The notes beneath the pieces are model-generated. The model saw only the letters and a program-made list of their open reading frames with translations. It was not told the DNA's origin and ran no database searches. Of a stretch of DNA of 64,000 nt, positions 11,267 through 32,250 are shown piece by piece. The translations under genes and the position numbers were made by a program. Numbering within the stretch: the stretch's first letter is position 1; each line of letters opens with the position of its first letter. This DNA is from an uncultured Dehalococcoidales bacterium (GTDB lineage: Bacteria; Chloroflexota; Dehalococcoidia; Dehalococcoidales; UBA5627), in contig CAYNQR010000002.1 in the NCBI GenBank assembly GCA_964399425.1, positions 97,084 to 161,083 on the forward strand. Reading direction: 5' to 3'.

Positions 11267-11282
11267 GGGGGGATAGCATATA

Positions 11283-11309
11283 TTGACAAAAAGAGTATAA
11301 TAGTATAAT
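11283..11309 (+). promoter_or_regulatory. Putative promoter of the PIN-GNAT-ASCH cassette
   Basis: TTGACA (11283-11288) and tandem TATAAT boxes (11296, 11304). The spacer to the second box is only 15 bp. Confidence 0.4.
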
Positions 11310-15188: not shown

Positions 15189-16019
15189 TTATTTCTTTTT
15201 AACAGCCTCCACCGCCAGTTGATAAAATCCCTTCACCATCCCCAAACTTTGTGCAAATCCGTCGATTATAAAGTAGGGTATGTAGTGCGGCTTGCCCTTT
15301 ACGATGCAAAGGCATATCCAGTAGGCATCGACCAGCGGAGGCCAAAAGCGGGCATGAAACGCCCCGTATTTACGAATGTAACGGGCTGCCACCCAGCCGT
15401 AGCGGAATCTCTGTCGTACGAAAGCAGAGAAGGTAGCGCGATGATGATGATAAACATAAGCGGCAGATATTCCCTGTTTTAACCCCGCCTCTTTCATCCT
15501 GATAGCAAAATCGAGGTCGCTGGCTCCTTTTAAGGAAGCATCGAGTTTATGCTGCATAACGATATCTCTCAGGACGATGGTTGCCTGAAGCCCGCCGACC
15601 CCGCGGCGTTCCCGCAGCAGTCTGCCGTTCCAATCGGTAGCGCGCTCCCAGTAGGTAACCGAACTGATGGGCAATACCGCAGCAGACATACTTGCATAAT
15701 CCTGTGCTCTTAATTCGTCCAGTAGTTTAGCCAGTGTTCCTTCCGGCAGGACGATATCTGAATCCACCAGTGCAATATAGTCGGAGTTTGCCTTTTCGGC
15801 GCCCAGCTGCTGGGCGTAATTGTACTCCCTTCCTTGGTCGGAAAATATCAGCGATGTATATCTACGGGCAATTGCCAGTGTATCGTCACTTGAATTGCCG
15901 TCGACCAGGATTATCTCGGCCGGATTGTTTTTTTTGACGGATTCAAGACACTGTCCGATTGTCTTTTCCGAATTCCTGGTGGTCACAACGACCGAAACAG
16001 GCAGTTTATCCATAAACAT
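15189..16019 (-). CDS. Glycosyltransferase family 2
   Basis: SVVVTTRNSEKTIGQCLES, VDGNSSDDT, YIALVDSD (DxD), SDLDFAIR. Confidence 0.9.
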   Translation of the reverse strand: MFMDKLPVSVVVTTRNSEKTIGQCLESVKKNNPAEIILVDGNSSDDTLAIARRYTSLIFSDQGREYNYAQQLGAEKANSDYIALVDSDIVLPEGTLAKLLDELRAQDYASMSAAVLPISSVTYWERATDWNGRLLRERRGVGGLQATIVLRDIVMQHKLDASLKGASDLDFAIRMKEAGLKQGISAAYVYHHHRATFSAFVRQRFRYGWVAARYIRKYGAFHARFWPPLVDAYWICLCIVKGKPHYIPYFIIDGFAQSLGMVKGFYQLAVEAVKKK

Positions 16020-16027
16020 CTCCCTAT

Positions 16028-17836
16028 TTAAGGCTGATTAATGTAAATCTGCGTATGACCGTTGTTGTAAATCATATTGTGCAGTGACAGTTGTCCGAGA
16101 TACTCAATCCATTGCGAATCGGTGGCTTCTATCGGAAAGGTCGAACTGTAAGGCTGCGCAAATCTTTCTGCAACGGCAAAAAGGGCTGTTTTCGAAGATG
16201 ATTCGAACCTTCCGATTTGTTTTTGGACGGAAAGCCATAAATCCTCTTCACTTGCCAAATCCCAAGATTGCGCCGGATGGGATAGTTCGGCATCTGGTAT
16301 AAAATAAACGAACGAATAAACGGTTATGATATCGGATATAAAAAGCAATTCCTTTTCATCATAATATCCGCTTACAAATTCTCCGGCGAAAAGTTCATAT
16401 TCGTAAACGGATTGCGTATCGATATCCGAATGGTTAACCAGAAAGGTCGGGAATGACAGAATCAATAACAACAGGGGAACTGCAACCAGTGAATACTTAT
16501 TGGCTTTCCTCTCGTTTTGAATAAGAGGTGTATTCATCAGTTGCATATATATTTTTTCCTGCCTGGTAACGGATATGAATTTTATAATAATCGGCGCCGC
16601 TAAAAACGGGATATACATCAGCGCTCTGCCCCACTGGGTTCCTTCTTCGAAGGCAAAAATTGCGACGGCGGAAGCAAGTAATATCCCCCAAAGTCCGCCC
16701 GTTTCGATAGTCTCGATTGAATCGAGTTTCTTAATCCTGAACAGATTTCTCATCGCCAGAATAACACCGGAAAGATAGAGCGTCAGCAGCCAGAAGTACC
16801 TCGTCAGGCTTGCCCACAATGGAGTAGCTTCCCCAAGCGATTGGGAAGCAGTGCCCAGCATAGGGAGCAACCTTTCCAGCGGATTGGAAAATGCGGCAAG
16901 GAAATCCTCGATATGTCCTGTTAACCCTTCGAACATGCGCGTTGCCCAGAACATTTCCCAGATAATAAATATTACACCGCAAAGCAGTAGAAGAATCAGG
17001 TTGACCGTTTTTTGTTTGGTTATCCTGCCGGTTATATAAATTCCACCGAGAGCGAAGATAAAAAATACCGGTATCGGAACATAAGTTATCGTAAGCGCGG
17101 CAAAACAGATGATAAACAGGCTGATGACAGCCGGTTTGGACATGACGCCGCCTTTTATTAAAAAATACAGCAGTATTACAAAGAAAATTATCGCCGTGAT
17201 GCCTGCGTGAAACATGGTTCTTGTGATAAGCATGGCGCCGAATACCAGAAACAGCACAGCCAGCGATGCCATCTGCGGATTTTTTATGGAGCGGGCAAAC
17301 AGCAGGTACAGCAGAACTGCCAGCAGCACACGACAGGATATAAGGAAAAAGGGGCGCAGCTCCGTTATTTCCAACCCCGATATCTCGGAAAGAGCGAATC
17401 CCGTCAGGTGAAGTCCCGGATACTGGAAATAAGCCAGATTGACGTGGTCGAACGCTATGCTGCCGGTTTGAGACAGATATTGAACATGACCCATATTTAC
17501 CAATCCGTCGGCATAACCTCCGTATGGAGCAACAATCACCCAGAATCCGAAGACGACAACGGCAAAGATGCCCACCAGCGTAACCCTCTGCCATTCGCCG
17601 GTGCTGTCCAGCAGCAACAGCAACAGCAACAGTACCGCCATCCATGAAACAAAAATAATCCCGAAGAGCCACAGGTTGTCGCCGAAAATGTAGAGGGATT
17701 CTACGGCATGATATTCGAATTCAAGCTGTACCGGAAAAAGCAGGATTGCCGAAGTAAGCGACAGCAAAAATATCCACAACAGCAGGCGGACAACCCCCGG
17801 CAGGGAGAACGATTTCGCTATTGCATTTTCATACAT
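16028..17836 (-). CDS. Polytopic membrane protein, possible GT-C-fold glycan transferase or polymerase
   Basis: About 12-14 hydrophobic segments, loop motif YADGLVNMGHV..YFQYPGLH, soluble C-terminal tail, position inside the glycosylation operon. GT-C assignment is inference. Confidence 0.6.
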   Translation of the reverse strand: MYENAIAKSFSLPGVVRLLLWIFLLSLTSAILLFPVQLEFEYHAVESLYIFGDNLWLFGIIFVSWMAVLLLLLLLLDSTGEWQRVTLVGIFAVVVFGFWVIVAPYGGYADGLVNMGHVQYLSQTGSIAFDHVNLAYFQYPGLHLTGFALSEISGLEITELRPFFLISCRVLLAVLLYLLFARSIKNPQMASLAVLFLVFGAMLITRTMFHAGITAIIFFVILLYFLIKGGVMSKPAVISLFIICFAALTITYVPIPVFFIFALGGIYITGRITKQKTVNLILLLLCGVIFIIWEMFWATRMFEGLTGHIEDFLAAFSNPLERLLPMLGTASQSLGEATPLWASLTRYFWLLTLYLSGVILAMRNLFRIKKLDSIETIETGGLWGILLASAVAIFAFEEGTQWGRALMYIPFLAAPIIIKFISVTRQEKIYMQLMNTPLIQNERKANKYSLVAVPLLLLILSFPTFLVNHSDIDTQSVYEYELFAGEFVSGYYDEKELLFISDIITVYSFVYFIPDAELSHPAQSWDLASEEDLWLSVQKQIGRFESSSKTALFAVAERFAQPYSSTFPIEATDSQWIEYLGQLSLHNMIYNNGHTQIYINQP

Positions 17837-17848
17837 CTTATGCCAGAC

Positions 17849-18817
17849 TCATCCTTCTTCCGTGTTTTGCAGCGAAGCTGTGAAATAAACGGTGCGTCCC
17901 TGCTTTATTACAATCGCTTTTAACGGCAAAGTAATTAGCGATAATAAGGGAAAGAATACTTTCAGGTATAACCTGCCTGCCAGCCCAAGCGCTTTTTTAC
18001 GCAGGCTTTTACTCTTTCCCTCCGTGTGGACGGCGTTCTGTTTGGCGACAGACTTGCCGGCAAACATTTCGGCCGCTTTATTGATGCCCAGTTTTCGGCT
18101 GATGAAGTTGCTCCAGGCGCGTTCGTATAGTCTGGGCGGCTCGACTTCTGCCGTTATTACGGTGAAGCCGCAACCGCTAAAGACCTTTTCCAGCGACGAA
18201 ACATTCCAGCGGGTGAGATGGCAGGGTGGCAGGTCCCAGTTCTCTCTGAAAAAACGCTCCGATTTTACCCTCCAGCGGTCGCGGTTGGGAACACTGATAA
18301 CTACAATCCCCCCGGGTTTCAAGAGCTTTTTTATACAATCGATGAAATCGGGAATATCTTCGATATGCTCCAGCACCTGGAAAAAGGCGATTAGGTTGTA
18401 CTTTTCGTTCCGCTTATGTGCCGTCAGCTCCTGAATTGTAAACGGGAAAACGTCCTTCAATCCGTAATGAGTTCGCGCAAAATTTACAGTTTCCGCAGAA
18501 GAATCGATTCCGGTTACCGAATATCCCGCCCGGCGCGCTTTTTCTAAAAACTCGCCGCTGCTGCATCCGATTTCAAGCAGTTTGCCTTCCTTATGCGGCA
18601 TATCCTCAAAAAAGCGTTTGTGCGCCCATGGCACTGACCGCAGGTTAAGATAGGTCAATGCCCCGGCTACATTATAGGAGTCATAAATTTCACCCGGGAC
18701 ACCTTTCATCGGCAGCCAGAACATCGCATCACAGGTTTCGCAGTGATACAGGCTGTATTCCCTGTGGATGCTTATTTTCCATGCGCTAGTTGCCTGTCGG
18801 CATATCTGGCATTTCAT
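17849..18817 (-). CDS. Class I SAM-dependent methyltransferase with N-terminal Cys4 motif
   Basis: CQIC..CETC, LLEIGCSSGEFL, GIDSS, FQVLEHI, LKPGGIVVISVPN, PCHLTRW. Confidence 0.9.
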   Translation of the reverse strand: MKCQICRQATSAWKISIHREYSLYHCETCDAMFWLPMKGVPGEIYDSYNVAGALTYLNLRSVPWAHKRFFEDMPHKEGKLLEIGCSSGEFLEKARRAGYSVTGIDSSAETVNFARTHYGLKDVFPFTIQELTAHKRNEKYNLIAFFQVLEHIEDIPDFIDCIKKLLKPGGIVVISVPNRDRWRVKSERFFRENWDLPPCHLTRWNVSSLEKVFSGCGFTVITAEVEPPRLYERAWSNFISRKLGINKAAEMFAGKSVAKQNAVHTEGKSKSLRKKALGLAGRLYLKVFFPLLSLITLPLKAIVIKQGRTVYFTASLQNTEEG

Positions 18818-18838
18818 TTCGATTCGTAATCCTTATCC

Positions 18839-20041
18839 TTATAATTTATAGACTTCTATCATCCCGGCAGCCATTTTCTCGGCGGAATAATTTTCTTCGA
18901 CTGTTTTTCTGGCAAAAGCGCCCATTTTTATTCGCTCCTGCGGATTATCCAGCAGGTAATTAATTTTTTCTGCAAGCTGTTTTTCATCGGCGGGGTCGAT
19001 GATAAATCCGCTCTTTCCGTCTGCGATGCGGCGCGGCATGGTGCCGACACGCGTGCCGATTACCGGTTTGCCGCTTGCCATTGCCTCGATTTGCACCTGC
19101 GGGTCGAGGTCGACTATGGAAGGAATCACCACCATATCGCAGGCGGCATACAATTTTATCTTGTCGTCGATCGGTACAGAGCCGGTAAATGTAACTTTTT
19201 TGCGCAATGCATAATCACCGACCAGCCGGTTTACTCTTTCAGCGTAACCGCCGGATGCATTGTTATGCGCATCGAATTGTTCCGGGGGTCCGACAATCAA
19301 AAGGCGCACGTTATCCTTGACGCAGCGGTTTATCACGATATCGGCGGCTTTTATCAGGTATTCCACGCCCTTATCGGCGCATATCCTGCCCACGAAAAGC
19401 ACCATATTATCGTTTCCCATGTAATATTTTTTACGGATTTCTTCGATTTCATGTTTCGGGTTGTACTGAACCGTATCGACGCCGATGGGAACTATCAAAA
19501 CCCTGCCGGCTTCCACCTTTGCCTGCCTTACCAGTTTTCCCGCTATGACCTCATTGGCGATAGTCGTTTTATTTACTCTCTTAACGAGTTGATTTTCCAA
19601 CCACAAGGCAATCTTGTCGGCAATCCCGGGTGATTTTTTGTCTCTACGCAGCCCGACACTGGTATAGAACAGCTTTTTCCTTATGCGTCTGTTTAAAAAT
19701 GCCAGTACAAGACCGAGCATTACGGTGTATAAATGAACAACCTCGATGTCAGAGGTCTTTTTCAGGTATTTATTTACACTCAGCCCGAAACAGATTTGCG
19801 TCAGCACAAAATTTACCGTAAATCCCAGTCTTTTAAAACGCGGCGATTCCAGCCTGACGATTTTTAATCCGTCGATATACTCCACTTCGGCATCAGCGGC
19901 ATTATATTTGCGGTCGATAAGCGTGACAATATGACCCATATCGGAAAACTGTCTGGACAGATTCAGAATAAAAGCTTCCGCTCCGCCGCCCTCTTGCGGG
20001 GGAATGCGCACCCAGCCGCCGCTGACCAGTATTATATTCAT
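18839..20041 (-). CDS. Glycosyltransferase family 4 (GT-B)
   Basis: GGAEAF, LFVGRICADKGVEYLI, IEAMASGKPVI, GFIIDP..LAEKI. Confidence 0.9.
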   Translation of the reverse strand: MNIILVSGGWVRIPPQEGGGAEAFILNLSRQFSDMGHIVTLIDRKYNAADAEVEYIDGLKIVRLESPRFKRLGFTVNFVLTQICFGLSVNKYLKKTSDIEVVHLYTVMLGLVLAFLNRRIRKKLFYTSVGLRRDKKSPGIADKIALWLENQLVKRVNKTTIANEVIAGKLVRQAKVEAGRVLIVPIGVDTVQYNPKHEIEEIRKKYYMGNDNMVLFVGRICADKGVEYLIKAADIVINRCVKDNVRLLIVGPPEQFDAHNNASGGYAERVNRLVGDYALRKKVTFTGSVPIDDKIKLYAACDMVVIPSIVDLDPQVQIEAMASGKPVIGTRVGTMPRRIADGKSGFIIDPADEKQLAEKINYLLDNPQERIKMGAFARKTVEENYSAEKMAAGMIEVYKL

Positions 20042-20841
20042 TATTTCTCTTTTATTCCCGTAATCAGTAAATCCGAACCGTTGAAAGGCTTTTTAAGCAC
20101 TTTGTTGCCGATTGAGAATACCCAACAGCGGATTTTAACCAGAATTTTTATAGCAATCAGGCTCAGGAATGCCTTAACGCCGTTTTGGGATTTGGGGGGC
20201 AGGGGCGGCATACCGCCCGTGTAACAGGATGATAAATAAATTTCGGTTATCCCGTATTTTATTAATGCGCTCAGGTAAACATGGTGTTTATTGATGGTGC
20301 GGTTGGGGGTATCCCAGCCTTCTTTCAAGACCCAGCTGCGCATCAGCGGCAAATCCTCCACCCGGCGGCTGAAGCGTACCGCCGCACAGGATTCGTTGGG
20401 TTCTGCCAGAGCGATTATGCCAGCCGGTTTTAAAACGCGCACCAGTTCGGAAACAGCTTTATTTACATCGGGAAAGTGATGCAGTACCCATCCGCAGTAA
20501 CAGATATCGAAGGTATTATCGGCAAAAGGCAGGTTCTCCAAATCTCCCTGCTGCGCCTTGAAATTGACGCCTTTGAGTCCGGCTCTTTTATTAGCCATAT
20601 CGACTGCGGCAGGCGAAATCTCGATTCCGTGTACTTCATTTCCCTGCTTTGCCAGCATTATGCCGTAGGTGCCGGGACCGCAGCCGGCATCGAGGATTTT
20701 CTTGCCGCTGACGGATACCAGTCCCAGCAGTTCCAGGTGCGAAAGCCGCACGCGGTATCCGCGCGTATCTTCCAGCCAGTCGTCTTCCGGCGTGCCGCTG
20801 CCGACCAGCATTTCGGTTGCTTTATCCTGTACTTCTGCCAT
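20041..20841 (-). CDS. Class I SAM-dependent methyltransferase (Methyltransf_11-like)
   Basis: ILDAGCGPG, GIEIS, GDLENLPFADNTFD, VLHHFPD, RVLKPAG. Confidence 0.9.
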   Translation of the reverse strand: MAEVQDKATEMLVGSGTPEDDWLEDTRGYRVRLSHLELLGLVSVSGKKILDAGCGPGTYGIMLAKQGNEVHGIEISPAAVDMANKRAGLKGVNFKAQQGDLENLPFADNTFDICYCGWVLHHFPDVNKAVSELVRVLKPAGIIALAEPNESCAAVRFSRRVEDLPLMRSWVLKEGWDTPNRTINKHHVYLSALIKYGITEIYLSSCYTGGMPPLPPKSQNGVKAFLSLIAIKILVKIRCWVFSIGNKVLKKPFNGSDLLITGIKEK

Positions 20842-20870
20842 TACTTATCCCTTTCTAAATCTTAGCGATG

Positions 20871-21884
20871 TCATTGTTTTCTTGCCCGTTCGGATTTATA
20901 GAGTTGATAGGCGATTTTAACCGCTGCCAGTCCGTCCTCCCCGTTTGCCATCGGCTCACGGTTTTCTCTTATGGCATTTGCAAACTCGCTCCATTCCTCT
21001 TCCCAGGAAACATCTCTGCCGCGGTATTCGATAACTTCTTCTTTAAACGGCTCCAGAAAAGCCCTTTTACCGAGGATGGCTTTCTCGGTTCCGTAGCTGC
21101 CGCCCAACCCCTCCACAATAATGTATCCGTCTTTGCCGAATATCTCGAAACGGAATAAATTTTTCCATTGAGTCCAACCGGCATAAAGTGATGCAATCTT
21201 GCCGCTATCTGTTCGTAAAAGGCAGAAGACATTGTCTTCGAGCGGTGCAATATTCCAGAACCCGGTTTGCAGAAAACCGCTGACTTCTGTAAAATCGCCC
21301 AGAAACCAGCGTGCCAGGTCTATAATATGCATCCCCTGGTCCATCAATTGTCCGCCTCCGCCGATGTCTTTGTTTGCCCTCCAGTCCTTGTCGTAATCCT
21401 GCCTGCCGCCGATACCGTATGCCGAACGGATAAACAGCAATTCGCCGATAACCCCGCTATCGACCCATTTTCTGGCCTGTTGAACGGCAGGATGATGGCG
21501 GTGGTTGAATCCGCATTTCAATTTCAGACATTTTTGGCGCGCCAGTTCAACTATTATTTCGGCTTCTCCGGGGTTGCGAGCCAGCGGTTTCTCACATAAA
21601 ACATGCTTGCCGTTTTCCAAAGCAGCGGCGCACATCGGCAAATGGCAATCCGGCGGAGTGCAAACTAAGATAACATCGATATCCTTCCGGCAGACCAGCT
21701 GCTGCCAGCTATCGGTCTGTTCGCAGTTCATATCGTTAGCCAGGCATTTTGCCTGCTCGCATAAATCAGAGGAGACAGCCACCAGTTCGACATCTTTAAA
21801 GCAGCGCAACGCTTCCGCTCTGCGCCTGCCCATCAGTCCGGTGCCGATAATACCAGCTCGAATCTTGCTCCCGTTATCTACCAT
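20871..21884 (-). CDS. Gfo/Idh/MocA family oxidoreductase
   Basis: GIIGTGLMG, HVLCEKPLA, GFNHRHHP, GGGQLMDQGMH. Confidence 0.9.
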   Translation of the reverse strand: MVDNGSKIRAGIIGTGLMGRRRAEALRCFKDVELVAVSSDLCEQAKCLANDMNCEQTDSWQQLVCRKDIDVILVCTPPDCHLPMCAAALENGKHVLCEKPLARNPGEAEIIVELARQKCLKLKCGFNHRHHPAVQQARKWVDSGVIGELLFIRSAYGIGGRQDYDKDWRANKDIGGGGQLMDQGMHIIDLARWFLGDFTEVSGFLQTGFWNIAPLEDNVFCLLRTDSGKIASLYAGWTQWKNLFRFEIFGKDGYIIVEGLGGSYGTEKAILGKRAFLEPFKEEVIEYRGRDVSWEEEWSEFANAIRENREPMANGEDGLAAVKIAYQLYKSERARKQ

Positions 21885-22726
21885 TTAAAACCCCTGTCTT
21901 CGGGTATAATCCTGCGCATCGTATAAACGTCGGATTTTCTGATATCTTCCAGGTGATTTTTGCTGTCTCTCCAGTTGTCCCACAGCAGACTGACCAGCCT
22001 GCCCGATAAACCGTCCGCTTCGGCTGACGCCAGATAAACCGCCAGTTCGGCAACCTTTTCCGGCGGCACGCCGCCATCTTCTTTTTGTTTCAATATCTTA
22101 GTCTTGAAATCGACCCCGACGGCATCGCCGGCCGCCAGCGCTTCGTCCAGCAACCTGGTATTGACCGGCCCGGGAGCGATGGCGTTGACATCTATGTTAT
22201 AGTCCCTGACCTCGCTGGCGATGGTTTCCGTAAGCCTGATAACACCGGCCTTGGATGTGCCGTAGGCGCTGAAGCGCGGCAGAGGGGAAGCCCCTCCTCC
22301 TCCCGACATATTGACGATTTTACCCCGGTTGTTCTTCATCATTATTGGTAGTACCGCCCGCATGCACAAGAACGTTCCGCAAAGGTTGATATTGATGGTC
22401 GCCAGCCAGTGCCGGACGTCATTATCCGTTATCAAACCGATGGGGCCGTATATGCCGGCGCAGTTCACCAGAATATCCACCGTACCGAATTTTTCCAGCA
22501 CGAATTTAACCATCTCATCGACTTCTTCCGGCTTCGAGACGTCCGCCTGAAAGGTTTCGATGCGTACTCCCTTAATCTCTTTAACATTTTCGAACTGCGT
22601 TTTATCGTTTGAAACCACTACGAGGTCGGCGCCTTCGGCGGCAAAGGCTTTCGACATTGCCAGCCCGATACCCAGGCTGCCGCCTGTGATAATCGCCACT
22701 TTGCCTTTAAATTGCATATTATTCAC
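21878..22726 (-). CDS. Classical SDR oxidoreductase
   Basis: TGGSLGIG, VNCAG, NMSGGG, catalytic YGTSK, IAPGPVNT. Confidence 0.9.
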   Translation of the reverse strand: MNNMQFKGKVAIITGGSLGIGLAMSKAFAAEGADLVVVSNDKTQFENVKEIKGVRIETFQADVSKPEEVDEMVKFVLEKFGTVDILVNCAGIYGPIGLITDNDVRHWLATININLCGTFLCMRAVLPIMMKNNRGKIVNMSGGGGASPLPRFSAYGTSKAGVIRLTETIASEVRDYNIDVNAIAPGPVNTRLLDEALAAGDAVGVDFKTKILKQKEDGGVPPEKVAELAVYLASAEADGLSGRLVSLLWDNWRDSKNHLEDIRKSDVYTMRRIIPEDRGFKW

Positions 22727-24017
22727 CCCTTCCGATACCCAGATAAGAAAATCCCAGCTTTTTCATCTGCTCCATATCGAGCATATTCCTGGCGTCGATT
22801 AAAACGGGTTTCTTCATTAAATTCTTTATCCTGTCATAATCCAGCAGCCTGAATTCCGGCCATTCGGTAATTAATATCAGCGCGTCGCTGTTTTCGGCAA
22901 CGGTGTAGGCATTATCGAGAAAATCGAACTCGATGTGCTGTTTTACTTCGTGCATATCCGCCTTCGGGTCGAAAGCTTTCACCCTGGCTCCCTTTTTAAC
23001 CAGTTCTGCGATTATTTCCAGTGAAGACGAGCGGCGCAGCGTGCTGGTACCCGGTTTATAGGTAATACCCAAAACACCGATATTCAAACCTTTTACAAAG
23101 CCGAAGACTTTCTCCAGTTTGCGGATAACTATACCGTTTTGCCTTTTATTGACGGTTAGCACACTGTCAATCAGCAGGGTTTCATAGTTATGGTCTCTAC
23201 CTGCTTTTTTCAGGATTTTCAGGTCGCGCGCCAGTGTGCCGCCGGCAAATCCGAGCCCGGGCAGTAACGGGATGCCATTGCCGATGCGGCTTTCCGAGCG
23301 CAGTGCCTGCGCTACTTTCAGGGTGTCGGCGCCGACCTCGTCGCAGATATTGGCAATTTCACTGCCGAAGCTAATCGAGGTTGCCAGGAAGGCATTCAGG
23401 GCATGCTTGGTCATCTCGGCGCTTTTTGTGTCCATCCTGATTACAGGTGCAGGTATGACACTGAAAAACTTTTCTACTTTGTCCAGGACAACATCCGAAT
23501 CGGCTCCGATTACTATGCGGTCTGGCTTTTTAAAATAGACGATGGCTTTCCCCAGCCTGAGGTTTTCAGGGCAGCAGGCGACATCGAAATCGAGAACCGG
23601 ATTTTCTTTCTTTATCATAGTCCTGATAGTATGGCAGGTTCCCACCGGCACCTGGCTGCTGATAATCAGTATGCATTCGTTTTTCAGATAAGGGGCAATC
23701 CTTTTGCAGGCATCCGTTACCGGTGAAAGGTCTACTTCGTCGTTATCGTCGACCGGCGTATCGAAGGCAATAATAACATTCGGACAATTACTGACGGCAT
23801 TTTCTATACCTGTTGTATAGATGAGCCTTCCCGCCTTGATATTGGCAGCAATCAACTCTTCCAGCCCCGGTTCGAACAGGGGCGGAATCCCGTTATTCAG
23901 ATTTTGTACCCTTTCGGCGTCATAATCCGCTCCGCTGACCTGATATCCGAAGTCGGCTAAGCAGGCGGAATAGACGCAACCGAGATGCCAGAGACCGATT
24001 ACACAGACTTTTTCCAA
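22719..24017 (-). CDS. UDP-glucose/GDP-mannose dehydrogenase family protein, catalytic Cys replaced by Thr
   Basis: VIGLWHLG, PLFEPGL, FDTP, PENLRLG, EMTKHALNAFLA, GFAGGTLARD. Start set at TTG 24017 behind an AAGGAG RBS. Confidence 0.85.
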   Translation of the reverse strand: MEKVCVIGLWHLGCVYSACLADFGYQVSGADYDAERVQNLNNGIPPLFEPGLEELIAANIKAGRLIYTTGIENAVSNCPNVIIAFDTPVDDNDEVDLSPVTDACKRIAPYLKNECILIISSQVPVGTCHTIRTMIKKENPVLDFDVACCPENLRLGKAIVYFKKPDRIVIGADSDVVLDKVEKFFSVIPAPVIRMDTKSAEMTKHALNAFLATSISFGSEIANICDEVGADTLKVAQALRSESRIGNGIPLLPGLGFAGGTLARDLKILKKAGRDHNYETLLIDSVLTVNKRQNGIVIRKLEKVFGFVKGLNIGVLGITYKPGTSTLRRSSSLEIIAELVKKGARVKAFDPKADMHEVKQHIEFDFLDNAYTVAENSDALILITEWPEFRLLDYDRIKNLMKKPVLIDARNMLDMEQMKKLGFSYLGIGRGE

Positions 24018-24024
24018 GTTGTTT

Positions 24025-24966
24025 TTACTCCTTGCCAAGCAGTCTTCCGGCGGCGATGCGCACCGCTTCATCGGACGAATGTTTCGGCGACCACCCCAGT
24101 TGTTTTACCTTGTCGATATTGAAATGAACATAGGGAGCATCGCCGCGCCAGCCGCGGCTGCCGCCGCTGTATTTGTATTTAACATCCCTCAATCCCATTT
24201 CTTCACAAACGATATCGGCGACACCTGTTATAGAGCTGTAAGTATCGGTGCCCAGGTTGAATACATCGCAGTCTTTATTAGATTTTTCAAAAACGGTCAG
24301 CATTCCTTCGATACAATCCTCTACCATAAAAAAGTTCTTCTCCTGTTTGCCGTCGCCCAGTATTTCCAGTTCTTGCGGATTGTTTTTCAGCTTTTGAATG
24401 AAATCGTAAATAACCCCATGCCACATATGTCCGCCGACAACATTGCCGAAGCGATAGATGCAGGAATGCATATCGAACAGGTGGCAGTATGCGGAAATCA
24501 TTCCTTCGCAGGCCAGTTTAGCGGCGCCGTAGAGTGAGATGGTAAGCAGCGGGCCGTCCGTTTCCGCCAGCGGTTTGGGCGGCATATCGCCGTAAACGGT
24601 GGCGCTGGAGGCAAACATCAGGTTTTTTATTCCCGACTTCCGCATGCATTCCAGTACGTTATAGGTGCCGATGGTGCAGTTCTTGAGGTCGAAGTCGGTC
24701 ATATTATTGCCTTTAACGATATCCGTATTGGCAGCCAGGTGCCAGACGATATCATGCCCGGGCATAGATTCATTCAACGCCCCGACATCCAGAATATCCG
24801 CCTGGATAAATTGAAAATGCGGTTTGCCGATGTGATGTTCGATTAGTTTTTTATTTCCGGTAACCAGGTTATCATAGACGGTAACCGTATGACCGTCTTT
24901 TAACAGCCTTTCGACAATATGACTTCCGATAAAGCCGGAGCCGCCGGTAAGAAAGTATTTTGACAT
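24025..24966 (-). CDS. NAD-dependent nucleotide-sugar epimerase/dehydratase
   Basis: TGGSGFIGSH, DNLVTG, HLAA, FASSATVYG, YGAAK, RFGNVVG. Confidence 0.9.
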   Translation of the reverse strand: MSKYFLTGGSGFIGSHIVERLLKDGHTVTVYDNLVTGNKKLIEHHIGKPHFQFIQADILDVGALNESMPGHDIVWHLAANTDIVKGNNMTDFDLKNCTIGTYNVLECMRKSGIKNLMFASSATVYGDMPPKPLAETDGPLLTISLYGAAKLACEGMISAYCHLFDMHSCIYRFGNVVGGHMWHGVIYDFIQKLKNNPQELEILGDGKQEKNFFMVEDCIEGMLTVFEKSNKDCDVFNLGTDTYSSITGVADIVCEEMGLRDVKYKYSGGSRGWRGDAPYVHFNIDKVKQLGWSPKHSSDEAVRIAAGRLLGKE

Positions 24967-25004
24967 TTCTATCCTCCCCAGATATTTTTACTTAACGGAT
25001 GATA

Positions 25005-25979
25005 TTAATTATTTATTTCATTAAACTCTAATTTATATGATGGAAAGGGAACCAGATATCCGATTGCACTGGATGTTAAAATTACAGTAATAAGATATAA
25101 ATGCTTTACAGCAGTTGATGGATTGACAAACATTTTTTTAGGCAAGCTTACCAAACGCTTAAAAACGCCCTTCAATACCTGATTCTCTTGTTCAAAAGAC
25201 CCGAATTCGTCATTATAGTATTTTCTGATGATTCGTCTGGTAGAACCTATATGGTGTGACCTTTGTACAAGAAACCTGAAACTTAACCGTCTTGCTATTA
25301 CCCTGTGCCAAACACGGGGCATCGGATTAAATACTATCGATTTTCCTGTTTTCCTTCTTATTCTAAGTGAAAATTCAATATCTTCGGAAATGGGTTTGTC
25401 GCGGTGCCCGTCGGAAAAACCGGCATTGCAGGAAAATCTACAGCCGTCAGAAAACGCCTCTCTTCTGAACGCCATATTTGAACCGAAAGCCCCTCTTACT
25501 ATGCGGGGTACTTCCCAGCCTGTCCAGGCAGTACAACTTATCAACCAGTAGAATTCCTGCGGCAGCCATTTTAATGAATTGTTTTCCCACAAAGGGAAAG
25601 CAGTGCCGGTGACCCCTATAGTTGAATCGCTGTTAAAAGCCTTGACCGTTTCTTCAGCCCAGTCGGGGAACAACACAACATCATCATCTACAAATGCTAT
25701 GATATCTCCTTCGGCATTTTCTATGCCCAGATTCCGCGACATCGAAAGGCCGAGCTTTTCCGTGCTGAAAACAATACGCATCCTTTCGATTTGTCGTTCT
25801 TTAATAAAAGCATCGAGCTTGTCGCGTAACTCCTCAGAACGCTCGACCACAAAAATAGTTTCCATATTGCGGCAGGTCTGCTTTTTAACGGATTCCAGCA
25901 GTTCGTAGATATCGTTCAGCCTTTCCGTAGTGTAGGAAGTTATTACCAGCGAAAGCGATAAATCACGATTTTCGTTCAT
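25005..25979 (-). CDS. Glycosyltransferase family 2
   Basis: SLVITSY, GLSMSRNLG, IIAFVDDD, GSNMAFRRE, SEDIEFSLR. Confidence 0.9.
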   Translation of the reverse strand: MNENRDLSLSLVITSYTTERLNDIYELLESVKKQTCRNMETIFVVERSEELRDKLDAFIKERQIERMRIVFSTEKLGLSMSRNLGIENAEGDIIAFVDDDVVLFPDWAEETVKAFNSDSTIGVTGTAFPLWENNSLKWLPQEFYWLISCTAWTGWEVPRIVRGAFGSNMAFRREAFSDGCRFSCNAGFSDGHRDKPISEDIEFSLRIRRKTGKSIVFNPMPRVWHRVIARRLSFRFLVQRSHHIGSTRRIIRKYYNDEFGSFEQENQVLKGVFKRLVSLPKKMFVNPSTAVKHLYLITVILTSSAIGYLVPFPSYKLEFNEINN

Positions 25980-26875
25980 TTAATTACGCCGTCCAGCGCT
26001 TCCCTGAATATCTTGAAATCCGCGGCGTGCTTTTGGCGCGATATTCCGATGACAACGCCTTTTAATTGAGAAACTTCGTTGATATATCCGATAGCCTCTG
26101 CCGGCTGAATGTAACCGCCGGCAAGGATGCTCATAGCGATTACTTCCGTCTGCGGAATATATGCCAGCGCTTTTTCGCATTCGTCTTTGCAGGGATTCAT
26201 CTGGAAACCTGTTTTATTATAAGGAGCTACTATTACCACTCTTGTTACATCTATGCCCAGCTTTATCAAATTGTTTATTAGCAAAGGGGAATTACGCGTC
26301 TCGAATCCGGGTTTAATCTTCATACTTGTCATAAAATTAATAAAAGACTTGAATAACCAATCAAGATTCAATGCCAGCGCCATTTCGGTGATAATTTCAT
26401 GCAGCAAAAAACAATGGGGCGCTTGTTTGGAGTTGGCGTACCTGCGTATTCTGAATATCTCGTAATATAAATAGGCTTTCATCAAACTGGCAGGGTCTTG
26501 AAAAACGACACCTTTGAAGCCGCAAAACATCGCTTTGATATTGCCCGATGCTATTATTTGTTTTGCCAGATGAATAGCCATACCGGGAGTGCCCAATTGT
26601 GAAGCCAGCCTGACATAATCCGAGGCAGCCGGCGCAATGGCGTATAGTTTGACAGAAATACCTTTTTCAGCCAATGACCTGATAATTTTAAGTGTAACTT
26701 CGCTGACAGAAAACATGAAACCGTCGGCCCCGTTTTCCGTGGCGATTTTTACTAATTCCGCACAGTATTCTGGATTCGAGATTTGGTTATCCCTGCTGCG
26801 CGCCCTGTTTTGAGACAGGTGGCTTACACCATGAAACGGATTATCGCCCACCAGGAGTATTTTATGATTGTGCAT
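25976..26875 (-). CDS. Conserved hypothetical protein in the glycosylation operon
   Basis: 299-aa ORF overlapping both neighbours; GDNPFHGVSHLS and IAMSILAGG motifs; function not recognised. Confidence 0.75.
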   Translation of the reverse strand: MHNHKILLVGDNPFHGVSHLSQNRARSRDNQISNPEYCAELVKIATENGADGFMFSVSEVTLKIIRSLAEKGISVKLYAIAPAASDYVRLASQLGTPGMAIHLAKQIIASGNIKAMFCGFKGVVFQDPASLMKAYLYYEIFRIRRYANSKQAPHCFLLHEIITEMALALNLDWLFKSFINFMTSMKIKPGFETRNSPLLINNLIKLGIDVTRVVIVAPYNKTGFQMNPCKDECEKALAYIPQTEVIAMSILAGGYIQPAEAIGYINEVSQLKGVVIGISRQKHAADFKIFREALDGVIK

Positions 26876-27866
26876 AATCGAACTCCCGTTTTTCCTTCTC
26901 GACCTGTTCGATTAAGCAATCGACCCTTGCCGCCTCTGCAAAATCGGGTTCTGCTTTCCCGCCTTGCATGACCGCTTCTATGAAATGCGCATCCTCGCGA
27001 TAATATTCGGAGGCTGCCAGCAAAAACGGAACGTTGTCATCAATGTCCTGGCGATGCAGTTCCCTGCATCCTCCGGAATACTTTTCGATTTTAATCCGGT
27101 CGGAATTTACCGATATTATTCCTCTGGAACCGCTGATTACTAAACCGAATTCAGGCAGCCGGTAGCCGTCTTTAATCCAGGAAATATCGTAATCGCCTTG
27201 CATTCCTGCGGCGCTTTTTACGCAGAAACGTGAACCGTTATCGACGCCGTTTTTATAATCTTCATCGCGTTCTACGGACGTAAGTTCAAGGTCTCCGAAT
27301 AACCACAGGCTTAAATCGATGATATGGGCGCCGAGGTCGCGGGTGGCGCCGCCTTTTACAGTTGAAGCCTTGTCATTGCCGTGGGCAAAATCCGAAGCAT
27401 AGGCATAAGCCTTGAAAGAAAGCGCTTCACCGGCTTCTCCTTCCTGCAATAACAAACGAGCCGTTTGGTAGGTAGGAGCGAACCTGCTCATATAACCGAC
27501 CATAGTTGTTCCGCCGTTTTCTTTTGCCAGTTGACATAAATGTTGTGCCTGTTCATAATTCGAAGCCAGCGTTTTTTCCACGAAAATATTTTTAGTAATG
27601 CCTTTTGCATACAGGTCTTTTACAATGGAGTAGTGGCTGGGGATGGGGGTGGTTACATAAACGGCATCGTATTTGCAGGAGGCGAATTTATCGTATTTAT
27701 CCGTTACCATAACATGGTCGATAGCTTTGCCCAAAAATCTCTTCATTAATGAACTTTTATCATAAATAGCCACGAGCGAAGCGCCGGGAATACTGTTAAT
27801 CAGGCTGGCATGCAGCAAGCCCATTTTCCCCATTCCGACGACGGCAATTTTCAGAGGATTGCTCAC
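26862..27866 (-). CDS. Gfo/Idh/MocA family oxidoreductase
   Basis: VVGMGKMG, VTTPIPSH, FVEKTLA, GGATRDLGAH. Confidence 0.9.
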   Translation of the reverse strand: MSNPLKIAVVGMGKMGLLHASLINSIPGASLVAIYDKSSLMKRFLGKAIDHVMVTDKYDKFASCKYDAVYVTTPIPSHYSIVKDLYAKGITKNIFVEKTLASNYEQAQHLCQLAKENGGTTMVGYMSRFAPTYQTARLLLQEGEAGEALSFKAYAYASDFAHGNDKASTVKGGATRDLGAHIIDLSLWLFGDLELTSVERDEDYKNGVDNGSRFCVKSAAGMQGDYDISWIKDGYRLPEFGLVISGSRGIISVNSDRIKIEKYSGGCRELHRQDIDDNVPFLLAASEYYREDAHFIEAVMQGGKAEPDFAEAARVDCLIEQVEKEKREFDYAQS

Positions 27867-27938
27867 CTTATAAAATCCTTTTCGATCTAATCAATTCTTA
27901 TTACTATTGTTGAAGCCTCATCAAGCTTTCTCAATTAA

Positions 27939-28628
27939 TTAAAAGCGTTCTTTGATAATAATAAATAAATCCTTAAAACCCTGTTTAAAACCAGATACCT
28001 TGCTGACGCTGCCGATGCGTCCTTTATCTATTTGCCGTATTTCAACCACCTTTAAGCCGGCTTTTTGAGCCTTGACAACCATTTCCTGCTCCATTTCAAA
28101 TCCATCATAACGCAGGTTTAATCTAAGAAAATCTTCTTTCCGCAGGGCATTGTAACCGGAACATACATCGGTATACTTGGTGCCGAATAATATATTGGTT
28201 GTTTTTGTAAGAACCCAGTTGCCGAATTTATGATAAAGCGGCATTTTGGGGTTGGCGTTCAAGAACCTGGAACCTTTGGCAAAATCGTAGCCGTCCGTCA
28301 ATGCCTCAATATATTTGGACAAGTCAGCCGGGTCGGTGGAACCGTCGGCATCCATGGTGACTACTATTTCACCTGCGGCATTTTTAAACCCGTGTTTCAG
28401 GGCATCCCCCTTACCTTTTCCCTGTTGATAGATAACTTTTAAATCCGGACGGATGGTCCTGGCTATTTCGATAGTTTTATCGGTCGAATGCCCGTCGACA
28501 AGCAGAATTTCATCTATCCAATCCGGTATCTTCGGTAAGACGTGCGTCAGGTTCTGCGCTTCATTCAGTGTGCAGATGATTACCGATACGGGCGGACAGT
28601 TTGCCGGTCTTTGGATGTTCATAATCAA
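27939..28628 (-). CDS. GT2, dolichyl/polyprenyl-phosphate glycosyltransferase (DPM1-like); start may be 28622
   Basis: CTLNEA, VDGHSTDKT, GKGDAL, MDADGSTDP, GSRF, YTDVCSGY, GFEMEQEM. Confidence 0.85.
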   Translation of the reverse strand: MIMNIQRPANCPPVSVIICTLNEAQNLTHVLPKIPDWIDEILLVDGHSTDKTIEIARTIRPDLKVIYQQGKGKGDALKHGFKNAAGEIVVTMDADGSTDPADLSKYIEALTDGYDFAKGSRFLNANPKMPLYHKFGNWVLTKTTNILFGTKYTDVCSGYNALRKEDFLRLNLRYDGFEMEQEMVVKAQKAGLKVVEIRQIDKGRIGSVSKVSGFKQGFKDLFIIIKERF

Positions 28629-28635
28629 GCTATTA

Positions 28636-29310
28636 TCACTTAACTAACATATCGATAGCCTTGTTGGCATCATTTATAAACTGCCTGACAGTCTCGCGCG
28701 TATATTGATGGTCTGCCATCTTTGCCAGCAATGCCGGCGGAATGGTAACGATGTGGGCGCCGGCTAAAGCGGCGGAGATGGCATCTCCTACCGAGCGGAT
28801 GCTGCCGGCAATAATTTTGCTCCGGTAATCCCAGCGTTCCAGCCAATCGACTGCTTCGGTGATTACTGCGGCGGCATCTCCGCCTTCGTCGGAAATCCTG
28901 CCGGCAAAGATACTGATGTATGTAGCGCCTGCTTTTGCTGCCAGCATCACCTGCCCGATGGAAAGCGCGGCTGTGGCATTAACCCTGATGCCGTCTTCTT
29001 CCAGTTGTCTTATAACACCGTAGCAGGGAACGCCATCCTCATTGATTTGCGGTATCTTGATAACGATATTCTGCGCCCATGAGTTGAATTTTTTTGCCTG
29101 AGATATCATTTCGGAGAGGTCGTTGGTAGTTACCTCTACCGAGAGGGGGTAGGGGAATATCAGAGTGGCGATTTCACGCGCGCGCGTTTCGATATTGTAA
29201 GCGCCGTCCTTTAACATGATGGAAGGATTGGTGGTTACCCCGTCGATGACTCCCATGTCCGTCCATTTACGGATTTCGTTCAAGTTCGCCGAATCCAAAA
29301 AGATTTCCAT
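28636..29310 (-). CDS. tal: Transaldolase (TalC/FSA fold, transaldolase-type residues)
   Basis: IFLDSAN, GVTTNPS, SVEV (Glu), VIKIP (Schiff-base Lys), YISIFAGR (Phe, where FSA has Tyr), GSIR. Confidence 0.85.
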   Translation of the reverse strand: MEIFLDSANLNEIRKWTDMGVIDGVTTNPSIMLKDGAYNIETRAREIATLIFPYPLSVEVTTNDLSEMISQAKKFNSWAQNIVIKIPQINEDGVPCYGVIRQLEEDGIRVNATAALSIGQVMLAAKAGATYISIFAGRISDEGGDAAAVITEAVDWLERWDYRSKIIAGSIRSVGDAISAALAGAHIVTIPPALLAKMADHQYTRETVRQFINDANKAIDMLVK

Positions 29311-29945: not shown

Positions 29946-30542
29946 TTATTTAACGGATTCCCATTTCATTTCCGCTGCCTTCAGCTTCGGGTGTGAAACA
30001 ATCAGATGCCAGACGACGGCCTGGAATGCTTCTGTATGGGGTGTTATCGAATTTGGATTAACGGTAGGGATTACTATACAGCTATCGGCTACACCGGCGG
30101 TATATCCGCCGTCACGCCCGACAATGCCGAGTATGGCGGCTCCTTTTTGTTTGGCATATTGGAGCGCGCGAACCAGATTGAAGCTGATTTTCTTCTCTTC
30201 GCTTCCTCCTCCGACCGAAAAAATAAAAATGCCGTCGCTGCCATTCAAACGGCTTATTTTCAGCCATTCCACAAAAGCCCCTTCCCAGCCGTCGTCATTG
30301 ATGCGGGCGGTCAGTTCGGAGACATTATCGAGCGGAGAATACGATTCGATAGCGGCTATTTTCCTGAAATCATTTACGGCGTGTGTCGCATTGCCGGCGC
30401 CGCCGCCGACCCCCAGGAAAAACAGGCGGCCGCCTTTTTTGCGGATAGCGCAAATAATATCCACCATTTTTTCGATATCGCGGCGGTTCAGTAATCCGGC
30501 TATCTCCGCCGCTTCTTTCAGGTATTCATCCGTATACATCAT
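29946..30542 (-). CDS. gmhA: Phosphoheptose isomerase (SIS domain)
   Basis: GVGGGAGNATHAVNDFRK, TARIND, FSVGGG, HTEAFQ. Start set at 30542 (ATGA overlap with the hddA stop). Confidence 0.85.
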   Translation of the reverse strand: MMYTDEYLKEAAEIAGLLNRRDIEKMVDIICAIRKKGGRLFFLGVGGGAGNATHAVNDFRKIAAIESYSPLDNVSELTARINDDGWEGAFVEWLKISRLNGSDGIFIFSVGGGSEEKKISFNLVRALQYAKQKGAAILGIVGRDGGYTAGVADSCIVIPTVNPNSITPHTEAFQAVVWHLIVSHPKLKAAEMKWESVK

Positions 30543-31540
30543 CTGTATCTCACCGACGTATTTGCCAGTATTTTTGTGCCGTCGAAATCGAAGTGGAATT
30601 TTTCCCATCTCAAACCGGCGCTTTCCATTTTCTGTATAATGCGTTTTTTACATCCGTATTCACAGTAGAAAAGCAGAAAACCGCCGCCGCCGGCGCCGAT
30701 TAGTTTGCCGCCTAAAGCCCCGTTCTTGCGGGCAAGCTCATAGCATTCATCGATATGAGGGTCGGATATTTTTCCTGAGCGTTTCTTTTTTAATTCCCAG
30801 TGAGCATTCATCGATTCTCCAAGCATATCCAGATTACCGTGCTCAAGGTATTTTCTGGTTTGAAGCCCGATATCTTTTATATGGTTCAAATTGTCGATAA
30901 TTGACGGGTCGCCATCTTTAGACTTTTTATCCTGTTCGAAAAGTATTTCGGAGGCGTTTCTTTCCCTGCCGGTAAAAAACATCAATAATTTATCTTCAAG
31001 CCCATCTATGTCATCGGGGGAAATGCTCAGCGGTTCAACGATTACCGTTCCGTCTTTTTCGTAAGTGAGACAGGTCAAACCCCCGAATGCCGCCATATAC
31101 TGGTCCTGCTTACCTATCGGCTCTCCCATTAGATCCAACTCGATATGGCAGGCTTCTTCGGCCAATCTCTTTTGAGTGGTATAATCCTTGTTGTAAACAT
31201 GAAGGGCATGCAGTAAAGCAACCGTAAAACTGGAGGAAGACCCCAGCCCGCAGCCGGAAGGCACATCTGCGGCAGAATGCAATTCAATGCCGTGGTGTAT
31301 GCCCACCGTTTCCAGAGCCGCGCGGAAGATGCGGTGCTTGATATTGCAAATATTATCTACTATTTCCGTTTCGGAATAGCTTAAGCGTATGCTGTCGTAG
31401 AATCTCTTGTGCGCTGTTATATTGCAGTATTTATCGATAGCTCCGGCAATCAGAAAGCCGCCATATCTGGAATAATAGGATGGCAGGTCTGTTCCGCCGC
31501 CGCCCAGAGTAATGCGCATCGGAGCCCTGGCTAAAATCAT
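30539..31540 (-). CDS. hddA: D-glycero-alpha-D-manno-heptose 7-phosphate kinase (GHMP family)
   Basis: ARAPMRITLGGGGTDLPSY, GLGSSS, GKQDQY, GGKLIGAGGGGF. Confidence 0.9.
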   Translation of the reverse strand: MILARAPMRITLGGGGTDLPSYYSRYGGFLIAGAIDKYCNITAHKRFYDSIRLSYSETEIVDNICNIKHRIFRAALETVGIHHGIELHSAADVPSGCGLGSSSSFTVALLHALHVYNKDYTTQKRLAEEACHIELDLMGEPIGKQDQYMAAFGGLTCLTYEKDGTVIVEPLSISPDDIDGLEDKLLMFFTGRERNASEILFEQDKKSKDGDPSIIDNLNHIKDIGLQTRKYLEHGNLDMLGESMNAHWELKKKRSGKISDPHIDECYELARKNGALGGKLIGAGGGGFLLFYCEYGCKKRIIQKMESAGLRWEKFHFDFDGTKILANTSVRYR

Positions 31541-32250
31541 TTTTTTGCTCCTGTAAGCGTTATAAAATCTTCCAAACCTGCCGGTGAACCGATTTCATAA
31601 AAACGTTCCTTTACTTCATATGCCAGCAGTTCCTTATCCGCTATCAGCGAGGTAAAAACATCTCCCAGTTCGTAAAAACAGTCTTCCGGTATTCTCGATA
31701 GCATATCCTTGCGGAAAAGGTTTACCCCGTATTCTATGTAAGCCATATCGGCAGTTTTTTTACGCTTGTTGTACTTGGCAACAATATCTCCGCTGATTAC
31801 AGTGTTGCTAAAATCATAGAGGTCGTTGTTTTTATAAACAGTCATGAGCGCCAGTTTGTTTTTAGCTTGGAAGAAATCCCAAATAGCGGCAAAATCCGGT
31901 GTAACGTAGGAGTCTCCGTATATGGTAAAGAACCTGTCTTCAAGCAGCATTTCAGCGTTCTTAAGCGCTCCCGCCGTACCCAAAGGCTTATCTTCATAAC
32001 TATATGTTATATCGGTTCCAAACCGGCTTCCGTCACCGAAACAGCTTTCAATCTGTTCACCAAGATGCCCCAGGCACATCAATACCTTGCTGAATCCATT
32101 TTGTTTGAATATCTCCAACTGGTATTCAAGAAAAGGTTTGCCACAGATATCGACCATTGATTTGGGACGATTATGCGTCAAGTCGCCCAGCCTGGTAGCC
32201 AAACCGCCTGCCAGTACTACTATCTGCACATTATCCGTTTTAAAAGACAT
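31537..32250 (-). CDS. hddC: Sugar-phosphate nucleotidyltransferase (HddC-like)
   Basis: VLAGGLATRL, PKSMVDICGKPFL, PLGTAGAL, YGDSY, FYEIGS; first gene of the heptose operon. Confidence 0.8.
   Translation of the reverse strand: MSFKTDNVQIVVLAGGLATRLGDLTHNRPKSMVDICGKPFLEYQLEIFKQNGFSKVLMCLGHLGEQIESCFGDGSRFGTDITYSYEDKPLGTAGALKNAEMLLEDRFFTIYGDSYVTPDFAAIWDFFQAKNKLALMTVYKNNDLYDFSNTVISGDIVAKYNKRKKTADMAYIEYGVNLFRKDMLSRIPEDCFYELGDVFTSLIADKELLAYEVKERFYEIGSPAGLEDFITLTGAKK

Follow-up and report, generated by a model that had tools for sequence, protein, structure and literature searches.

A UDP-glucose dehydrogenase-like protein with threonine in place of the catalytic cysteine, and the putative higher-sugar cassette around its gene

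The gene and its active site

The window analysed here is a 64,000-nucleotide stretch of DNA from an uncultured Dehalococcoidales bacterium (contig CAYNQR010000002.1 of assembly GCA_964399425.1, positions 97,084 to 161,083). On its minus strand, at 22719–24017, lies a gene for a protein of the UDP-glucose dehydrogenase (UGDH) family in which threonine occupies the position of the catalytic cysteine. We refer to this protein and its relatives with the same substitution as the Thr clade. The features of the gene that matter most are as follows.

22719..24017, minus strand: Thr-clade UDP-glucose-dehydrogenase-like gene, 432 amino acids (aa), TTG start, AAGGAG Shine–Dalgarno sequence (Pfam and alignments)
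23235..23237, minus strand: codon of Thr261, at the catalytic Cys position (alignment to 4A7P, 3GG2 and 2Y0E)
23226..23228, minus strand: codon of Arg264, in place of the canonical Lys (same structure alignment and clade comparison)
23979..23996, minus strand: GLWHLG loop (residues 8–13, with Trp10 and His11) for the GxGYVG dinucleotide loop (opposite GTGYVG in the alignment)
23394..23408, minus strand: kept catalytic pair Lys204...Asn208 (EMTKHALN), with His205 for Tyr (alignment)

Is this an intact gene? Translation gives a stop-free frame of 432 aa, and the public database gene call (P0002) has the same length. The TTG start at 24017 follows its AAGGAG after a spacer of 10 nt; an alternative ATG-started open reading frame (ORF) reaching 24071 would overlap the upstream gene. 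All three UDPG_MGDP_dh domains are present in Pfam (N-terminal, 2e-43; central, 7e-23; C-terminal, 8e-29), PF03721, PF00984 and PF03720 scoring 148, 81 and 100 bits against curated cut-offs of 27, 25 and 30, and the general model TIGR03026 is passed at 352 bits against 190. On the other hand, none of the NCBIfam equivalog cut-offs for UDP-glucose 6-dehydrogenase is reached (TuaD, 370 against 700; AglM, 269 against 670; PRK15057, 63 against 757). The gene is the sole UGDH-family member of its genome (1.6 Mb, 95% complete), which holds no canonical UGDH. The nearest relative shows 82% identity (locus L005).

How does the active site depart from the textbook one? Residues were mapped by HMMER alignment to the solved UGDHs 4A7P (2e-90), 3GG2 and 2Y0E, in which GFAGGTLARD falls opposite GYGGSCFPKD. 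UGDH and GDP-mannose dehydrogenase (GMD) need this cysteine, through a thiohemiacetal or thioester, for their four-electron oxidation. The GGxCxxKD motif of the four-electron NDP-sugar 6-dehydrogenases is thus broken twice, at Thr261 and at Arg264, and the GxGxxG pattern of the dinucleotide loop is likewise absent. SSQVP stands for STVP and PENLRLG for PEFLREG. What is kept is the Lys...Asn pair (K204, N208), the Asp after the nucleophile position (D265) and the Glu of PEF/PEN (E151). The initial annotation had noted the threonine codon, the arginine, the altered loop and the Lys...Asn pair, and translation and alignment place all four where it had put them. On this sequence evidence, the balance leans towards a functional member of the UDP-glucose/GDP-mannose dehydrogenase family that lacks the catalytic cysteine.

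Extent and conservation of the Thr clade

If the substitution were an accident of one genome, close relatives should not share it. Yet all 120 of the nearest homologues (60–100% identity) carry GGTL.RD. When 1.84 billion representatives were searched exhaustively with HMMER, 3926 matched at E ≤ 1e-30. Of the best 150 of these, taken as 50%-identity representatives, 96 carry Thr at the Cys position, and Cys itself is found in 51. A tree was built from 134 full-length representatives, and one change, on a branch with support of 99, is enough to account for which sequences have Cys and which do not. The peptide pattern [GAP]F[ASG]GGTL[AG]RD matched at least 599 stretches in a set of one-genome-per-species contigs, and tblastn confirmed the motif in at least 588 species genomes. 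The best 80 matches span more than 20 phyla of bacteria and archaea, Micrarchaeota, Hadarchaeota, Altiarchaeales and Nitrosopumilaceae among them. Such numbers lie far beyond chance. We also considered a decaying pseudogene or a chance substitution, and both are ruled out by the intact frame, the good Shine–Dalgarno sequence and a signature that is invariant in the 120 near homologues and in the 96 representatives. The clade, to judge from its alignments and tree, is under purifying selection and has a single origin.

The change is not confined to one residue. A position was counted as switched if one residue reached at least 90% in the Thr group while the canonical enzymes had a different one at 80% or more. 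Thirteen positions qualify (clade/canonical): W10/G, H11/Y, L12/V, D86/G, D93/G, Q122/T, N152/F, L155/E, H205/Y, G260/S, T261/C, R264/K and Y320/F. Threonine at the Cys position is found in 100% of the 96 clade representatives, and cysteine in 100% of the 51 canonical ones. The same all-or-none pattern holds for Arg264 (100% in the clade; Lys in 100% of the canonical forms), and it is nearly as strict in the loop, where W (96%) and H (100%) replace G (100%) and Y (94%). Both groups keep G8, G13, E49, E151, K204, N208, R244, D265, N290, K321, R328, D350 and D408. Across the clade E151, K204, N208, D265 and R328 are conserved at 99–100%; their equivalents in UGDH carry out alcohol oxidation and contact the cofactor.

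The initial annotation had suggested a new route of heptose diversification. The gene is no lone curiosity, nor clearly the mark of a new route: it is one member of a huge conserved clade, and its cassette matches the lincomycin genes family for family (see below). The sequences tip the scales in favour of the cysteine-less forms being an ancient, monophyletic, very large and unstudied branch of the UGDH family. The clade members examined carry the labels ‘UDP-glucose 6-dehydrogenase’ or ‘nucleotide sugar dehydrogenase’; such a label is almost certainly wrong in at least 588 species. Literature searches on cysteine-less nucleotide-sugar dehydrogenases, on octose and transaldolase in polysaccharides and on the motif strings found nothing relevant.

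Two further observations concern the family. Canonical Cys-type UGDHs often hold an intein (PF14528, PF14890) immediately after GYGGS, with a Cys on either side (...GGSC[intein]...CFPKD), as in P0259, P0261, P0267, P0404–P0408 and P0412–P0415; the Thr-clade sequences seen have none. In a Dehalococcoidaceae locus (L016, about 5000–11300) two Thr-clade paralogues, scoring 583 and 612 bits, lie in one operon.

The operon and its conserved neighbourhood

In what company does the gene occur? Within the window it belongs to a minus-strand operon whose other members are listed here.

21878..22726, minus strand: classical short-chain dehydrogenase/reductase (SDR), 282 aa, candidate ketoreductase, with the TGxxxGxG and YxxxK motifs complete; its start shares 8 nt with the end of the dehydrogenase gene
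20871..21884, minus strand: Gfo/Idh/MocA oxidoreductase, 337 aa, GxGxxG and EKP intact, LmbZ/CcbZ-like partner; overlaps the classical SDR by 7 nt
24025..24966, minus strand: extended SDR of the GDP-sugar 4-epimerase subgroup, 313 aa, Y146xxxK, LmbM-like (3EHE, 1.5e-86; 8RDG, 4.9e-82)
28636..29310, minus strand: cassette-specific transaldolase paralogue, 224 aa, in LmbR-like position; the second, more diverged transaldolase (TAL) gene of the genome
29335..29928, minus strand: HAD-IIIA sugar bisphosphate phosphatase, GmhB- or LmbK-like (family profile matches)
29946..30608, minus strand: SIS-domain sugar-phosphate isomerase, GmhA- or LmbN-like (profile match); true start probably an internal ATG near 30542
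30539..31540, minus strand: GHMP anomeric kinase, HddA- or LmbP-like (profile match)
31537..32250, minus strand: sugar-1-phosphate nucleotidyltransferase (NTP-transferase), HddC- or LmbO-like (profile match)
15189..28628, minus strand: rest of the glycan operon, with three family 2 glycosyltransferases (GT2), one of family 4 (GT4), two S-adenosylmethionine (SAM) methyltransferases, a 602-aa membrane protein, a second Gfo/Idh/MocA protein and a TIM-barrel protein

Among named families the activation proteins match the GmhB, GmhA, HddA and HddC models best. All of them belong to the same superfamilies as these models but stay far below the heptose equivalog cut-offs, at 42 of 209 bits for GmhA, 177 of 600 for HddA, 88 of 250 for GmhB-alpha and 90 of 300 for HddC. 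The genome contains two short-type transaldolases, of which the operon copy scores 165 bits to PF00923 and the other (G000:C37:9922-10515) 200 bits; since the better-scoring housekeeping enzyme lies elsewhere, the operon copy is best regarded as a dedicated paralogue. In other phyla the scores of the cassette transaldolases form separate tiers, a sign that the enzyme may have been recruited more than once.

We then asked whether this company is kept elsewhere. The proteins of the window operon were searched against all ORFs of 83 Thr-clade loci, and neighbours were counted in the 40 genome-contig loci with at least 7 kb of flank on each side. An orthologue of the Gfo/Idh/MocA protein is present in 38 of the 40, the extended SDR in 31, the GHMP kinase and the NTP-transferase in 28 each, the SIS and HAD proteins in 24 each and the transaldolase in 23. 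The initial annotation had proposed a test of co-occurrence with hddA and gmhA, and held that a lack of any association with heptose genes would count against it. In many phyla Thr-type homologues are in fact accompanied by genes like hddA, gmhA, gmhB and hddC, as well as by those for Gfo/Idh/MocA proteins and SDRs, and three or more of the five activation genes are present in 25 of the 40 well-flanked loci. The link to the GHMP, SIS, HAD, TAL and NTP-transferase set persists in more than 20 phyla although the order of the genes is rearranged, whereas the glycosyltransferases and other genes vary. Among the carriers of the cassette are Polyangiaceae, Acidobacteriota, Kiritimatiellia and Nitrosopumilaceae.

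The redox partners recur in two architectures. In one the dehydrogenase-like gene is followed by a classical SDR and a Gfo/Idh/MocA gene; in the other it is accompanied by a Gfo/Idh/MocA gene and a second extended SDR (a GDP_Man_Dehyd/Epimerase protein). The Gfo/Idh/MocA partner is one orthologous family (42–87% identity). Thr-clade domains are also fused to classical SDRs (N- or C-terminally), as in P0185, P0216, P0237, P0402, P0411 and P0416; other fusion partners are extended SDRs and glycosyltransferase domains of the GT2 and GT4 families. Complex prediction for the dehydrogenase-like protein and its Gfo/Idh/MocA neighbour gave a score of 0.00, which we take as neither for nor against an interaction. 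In the 83 loci there was no further conserved family, no aminotransferase and no dehydratase; the largest leftover group, GT2, occurs in 9 of the 83, and the leftover genes comprise glycosyltransferases, methyltransferases, a flippase and an initiating transferase. Nor is any decarboxylase or uronate-using enzyme conserved in the neighbourhood of these loci.

Several other genes of the operon deserve mention. The second Gfo/Idh/MocA gene (26862–27866, minus strand) overlaps the gene for a 299-aa protein without a Pfam family (the pair spans 25976–27866), and the same pair is present in L002, L003, L005, L011, L020 and L029. AlphaFold2 models the 299-aa protein as a TIM barrel (pLDDT 82), for which DgpB-C and barrels of the sugar isomerase/epimerase type are only weak structural matches (TM about 0.5); it might act on keto-sugars, as an isomerase or a lyase, with an oxidoreductase of its own. 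The 602-aa polytopic membrane protein (16028–17836, minus strand) also has no Pfam family, its orthologue at L003 has a weak match to DUF6311, and it is kept with the operon in Dehalococcoidia. It is probably a glycan polymerase or a GT-C-type transferase. In some Dehalococcoidia B12-binding radical-SAM enzymes, likely C-methyltransferases, stand by the cassette (L009:13148-14698 and four further loci), replacing the SAM O-methyltransferases or lying beside them. An Rfam scan of the window detected no RNA family. Among sequencing runs the DNA occurs in wastewater metagenomes, one of which may be its source, and no RNA run is listed with it; this has no bearing on expression.

Possible function and comparison with known systems

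What might such an enzyme do? The loss of the cysteine together with the retention of Lys204, Asn208, Asp265 and Glu151 accords with a dehydrogenase whose reaction ends at the carbonyl. In a heptose or an octose the carbon on C5, which occupies the C6 site of UGDH, carries a secondary alcohol. A ketone formed there can neither form a thiohemiacetal nor be oxidised further, so that a cysteine would be dispensable. Taken together, the sequences make it somewhat more likely than not that the Thr-clade protein forms a keto group on a GDP-linked C7 or C8 sugar, works with partner reductases and makes no uronic acid; the end product would be a keto or deoxy sugar.

The closest parallel in gene content is the lmbRSOPZNML sub-cluster of lincomycin biosynthesis. 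This encodes a transaldolase (R), an aminotransferase (S), a guanylyltransferase (O), a kinase (P), a Gfo/Idh/MocA protein (Z), an isomerase (N), an epimerase (M) and a UGDH-like ‘C8 dehydrogenase’ (L), with the phosphatase K nearby; LmbM, LmbL, CcbZ and CcbS take the GDP-octose to the GDP-lincosamide. Work by Wang et al. in PNAS in 2020 is said to have described 6-epimerisation, 6,8-dehydration by LmbL with CcbZ, 4-epimerisation and 6-transamination. Family by family, the window cassette has counterparts of the lincomycin genes for the GDP-octose (LmbR, N, P, K and O together with LmbM, L and Z). The proteins of the celesticetin set and those of the window also agree in size (aa, Ccb/window): CcbL 436/432, CcbM 325/313, the N-terminal domain of CcbZ about 330/337, CcbP 323/333, CcbO 232/237, CcbR 222/224, CcbN 202/about 198 and CcbK 185/197. 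The best matches of the Ccb proteins outside the lincosamides are from Acidobacteria, Sorangium, Thermodesulfatator and Methanosarcina, and several of these belong to phyla in which the Thr-clade cassette also occurs. The best outside match of CcbL itself is AEH45078 from Thermodesulfatator indicus and is only 33% identical; the accessions of LmbL and CcbL are ABX00608 and GQ844764.

By analogy with this pathway we can outline a possible route. The transaldolase would build octulose 8-phosphate, from which the SIS isomerase, GHMP kinase, HAD phosphatase and nucleotidyltransferase would produce a GDP-octose. The epimerase-type SDR (24025–24966) would adjust the stereochemistry at C4 and C6. The Thr-clade enzyme would then use NAD to oxidise the secondary C6 hydroxyl in a single two-electron step and, together with the co-translated Gfo/Idh/MocA enzyme, bring about removal of the 8-hydroxyl (6,8-dehydration). 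A ketoreductase, the classical SDR here and the second extended SDR elsewhere, would reduce the 6-ketone to give a deoxy-octose, thus filling the place of the aminotransferase of lincomycin. The product would be O-methylated by the methyltransferases and transferred to a surface glycan by the glycosyltransferases. This specific version, with an octose substrate and 6,8-dehydration, we offer tentatively. The residue pattern, the clade, the cassette and the fusions are observations; we infer the substrate (an octose, less probably a heptose), the regiochemistry, the cofactor use and the product alike.

A number of points weigh against this proposal. The transaldolase could simply supply sedoheptulose 7-phosphate, in which case the substrate might be a heptose after all. 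The sub-threshold scores of the kinase, isomerase, phosphatase and transferase argue for neither sugar. The likeness to LmbL/CcbL is one of gene content, protein sizes and published gene tables rather than of aligned sequences. An aminotransferase of the LmbS/CcbS type is absent from the cassette (none is conserved in the 83 loci) and a ketoreductase stands in its place. Trp10 takes the place of the central Gly in GxGxxG, and the cofactor pocket contains Asp86 and Asp93, so that turnover of NAD is no more than a prediction. Finally, a search among the longer clade proteins gave no fusion to Gfo/Idh/MocA, which is a weak negative.

How do the alternatives fare against this evidence? The best of them, though we consider it unlikely, is the one that the initial annotation had put forward. 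The enzyme would oxidise the C6 hydroxyl of GDP-D-glycero-D-manno-heptose to the 6-ketone, and the neighbouring SDR or Gfo/Idh/MocA enzyme would re-reduce it from the other face to the L-glycero epimer or another diastereomer. The missing cysteine and the retained alcohol-oxidation residues are as this model would have them, the activation genes do match HddA, GmhA, GmhB and HddC best among named families, and the reductases are both adjacent and fused. However, in known pathways a single SDR, HldD, already performs this inversion, and the model leaves without a role the conserved transaldolase, the two or three extra oxidoreductases and the 4-epimerase-type SDRs; the heptose equivalog scores, too, are far below their cut-offs. 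The lincomycin logic assigns a role to every conserved gene, and for this reason we prefer it to heptose inversion. The single two-electron oxidation at the C6 hydroxyl thus retains its support from the absent Cys and the kept Lys, Asn, Asp and Glu, while the identity of the sugar shifts, since it may be an octose, and the partners may carry out dehydration and ketoreduction rather than inversion.

Less likely again is that redox activity has been lost altogether, leaving a conserved non-catalytic or non-redox subunit (for NDP-sugar binding, as a dehydratase or as a scaffold) whose partners do the hydride chemistry. The tryptophan at the central Gly of the loop and the two aspartates replacing Gly in the cofactor pocket would suit such a subunit, as would the canonical Gly-rich loops and catalytic motifs of the Gfo/Idh/MocA and SDR partners with which the protein is always found. 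Against it stands the near-complete conservation of E151, K204, N208, D265 and R328, and the switched residues are themselves invariant, as in a site that has been redesigned rather than relaxed.

We give still less credence to an ordinary UDP- or GDP-hexose of the same glycan, such as UDP-GlcNAc or GDP-Man, as substrate, with the heptose-like genes as mere co-residents of the operon. The several glycosyltransferases do call for several donor sugars, and GlmS- and GlmU-like genes are present at L004. Nevertheless, co-residence would not account for a five-gene activation set that holds across so many phyla and rearranged orders while other genes vary. A uronic acid made by thiol-free four-electron oxidation, for example via the hydrated aldehyde, is very improbable: Glu151, the hydrolysis base of UGDH, is kept, yet the established UGDH/GMD mechanism requires the Cys, the residues around that chemistry have changed (Thr to Gln122, Glu to Leu155, Lys to Arg264) and no decarboxylase or uronate-using gene is conserved nearby.

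We return to a keto-forming enzyme acting on a GDP-linked higher sugar. In its widest form, which we regard as possible though doubtful, the Thr-clade enzyme and its cassette constitute an unrecognised primary-metabolic pathway in hundreds of bacterial and archaeal species, whose product is a GDP-activated (deoxy-)octose destined for glycans of the cell surface; in that case the lincosamide sugar pathway would be its specialised offshoot, and the natural substrate of the archaeal GDP-sugar 4-epimerases would lie within it. If this were true, the fixed 13-residue redesign of a textbook active site would be explained. It would also place a C7 or C8 sugar not known until now in the envelopes of uncultured lineages (Dehalococcoidia, CPR bacteria, DPANN archaea, Verrucomicrobiota and Nitrososphaerota), and would provide both an evolutionary source for the lincosamide sugar pathway and new enzymes for rare sugar nucleotides.

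How, then, does the Thr-clade enzyme compare with systems already known? LmbL/CcbL is likewise a UGDH-family protein that acts on a GDP-activated higher-carbon sugar, and it is encoded together with a Gfo/Idh/MocA protein, an archaeal-type NDP-sugar epimerase and five activation enzymes. The same gene set is present in the window cassette at the level of families. LmbL, however, comes from an actinomycete antibiotic cluster, and the Thr-clade gene from a surface-glycan operon with methyltransferases and glycosyltransferases; without an LmbS-type aminotransferase the cassette is not a lincosamine pathway. When a GC-rich clade member (P0147) served as query, no named lincosamide protein was among the results, the cluster records bearing generic names only, and tblastn of plasmids found only canonical Cys-type genes, in Streptomyces and Nonomuraea.

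The canonical UGDHs and GMDs (4A7P, 3GG2, 2Y0E and 1MFZ) share the three-domain fold, about 40% identity and the Glu, Lys, Asn, Asp and Arg of the active site. The Thr-clade enzyme differs from them in the absent Cys, in its 13 fixed switches, which include the dinucleotide loop, in its separate branch and in its gene context. HldD (RfaD), by comparison, oxidises the secondary C6 hydroxyl of a nucleotide-heptose to a 6-ketone that the same enzyme re-reduces. It thus shares the chemistry that the initial annotation had proposed; in structure it is an extended SDR with tightly bound NADP and a fold unrelated to that of UGDH, and it works without partner enzymes.

The GDP-sugar 4-epimerase subgroup (8RDG and 8RDH, PhGal4E_1; 3EHE from A. 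fulgidus; 3AW9 from P. calidifontis) is related to the adjacent extended SDR and not to the dehydrogenase. A close relative of the subgroup stands beside Thr-clade genes in many phyla. This subgroup prefers GDP-sugars, and its physiological substrate was not established in the study that describes it (PMC12171764). The closeness of the adjacent SDR to these GDP-preferring 4-epimerases supports a GDP-linked substrate for the cassette. The GDP-heptose or GDP-octose of the cassette may, in turn, be the physiological substrate of these ‘promiscuous’ epimerases.

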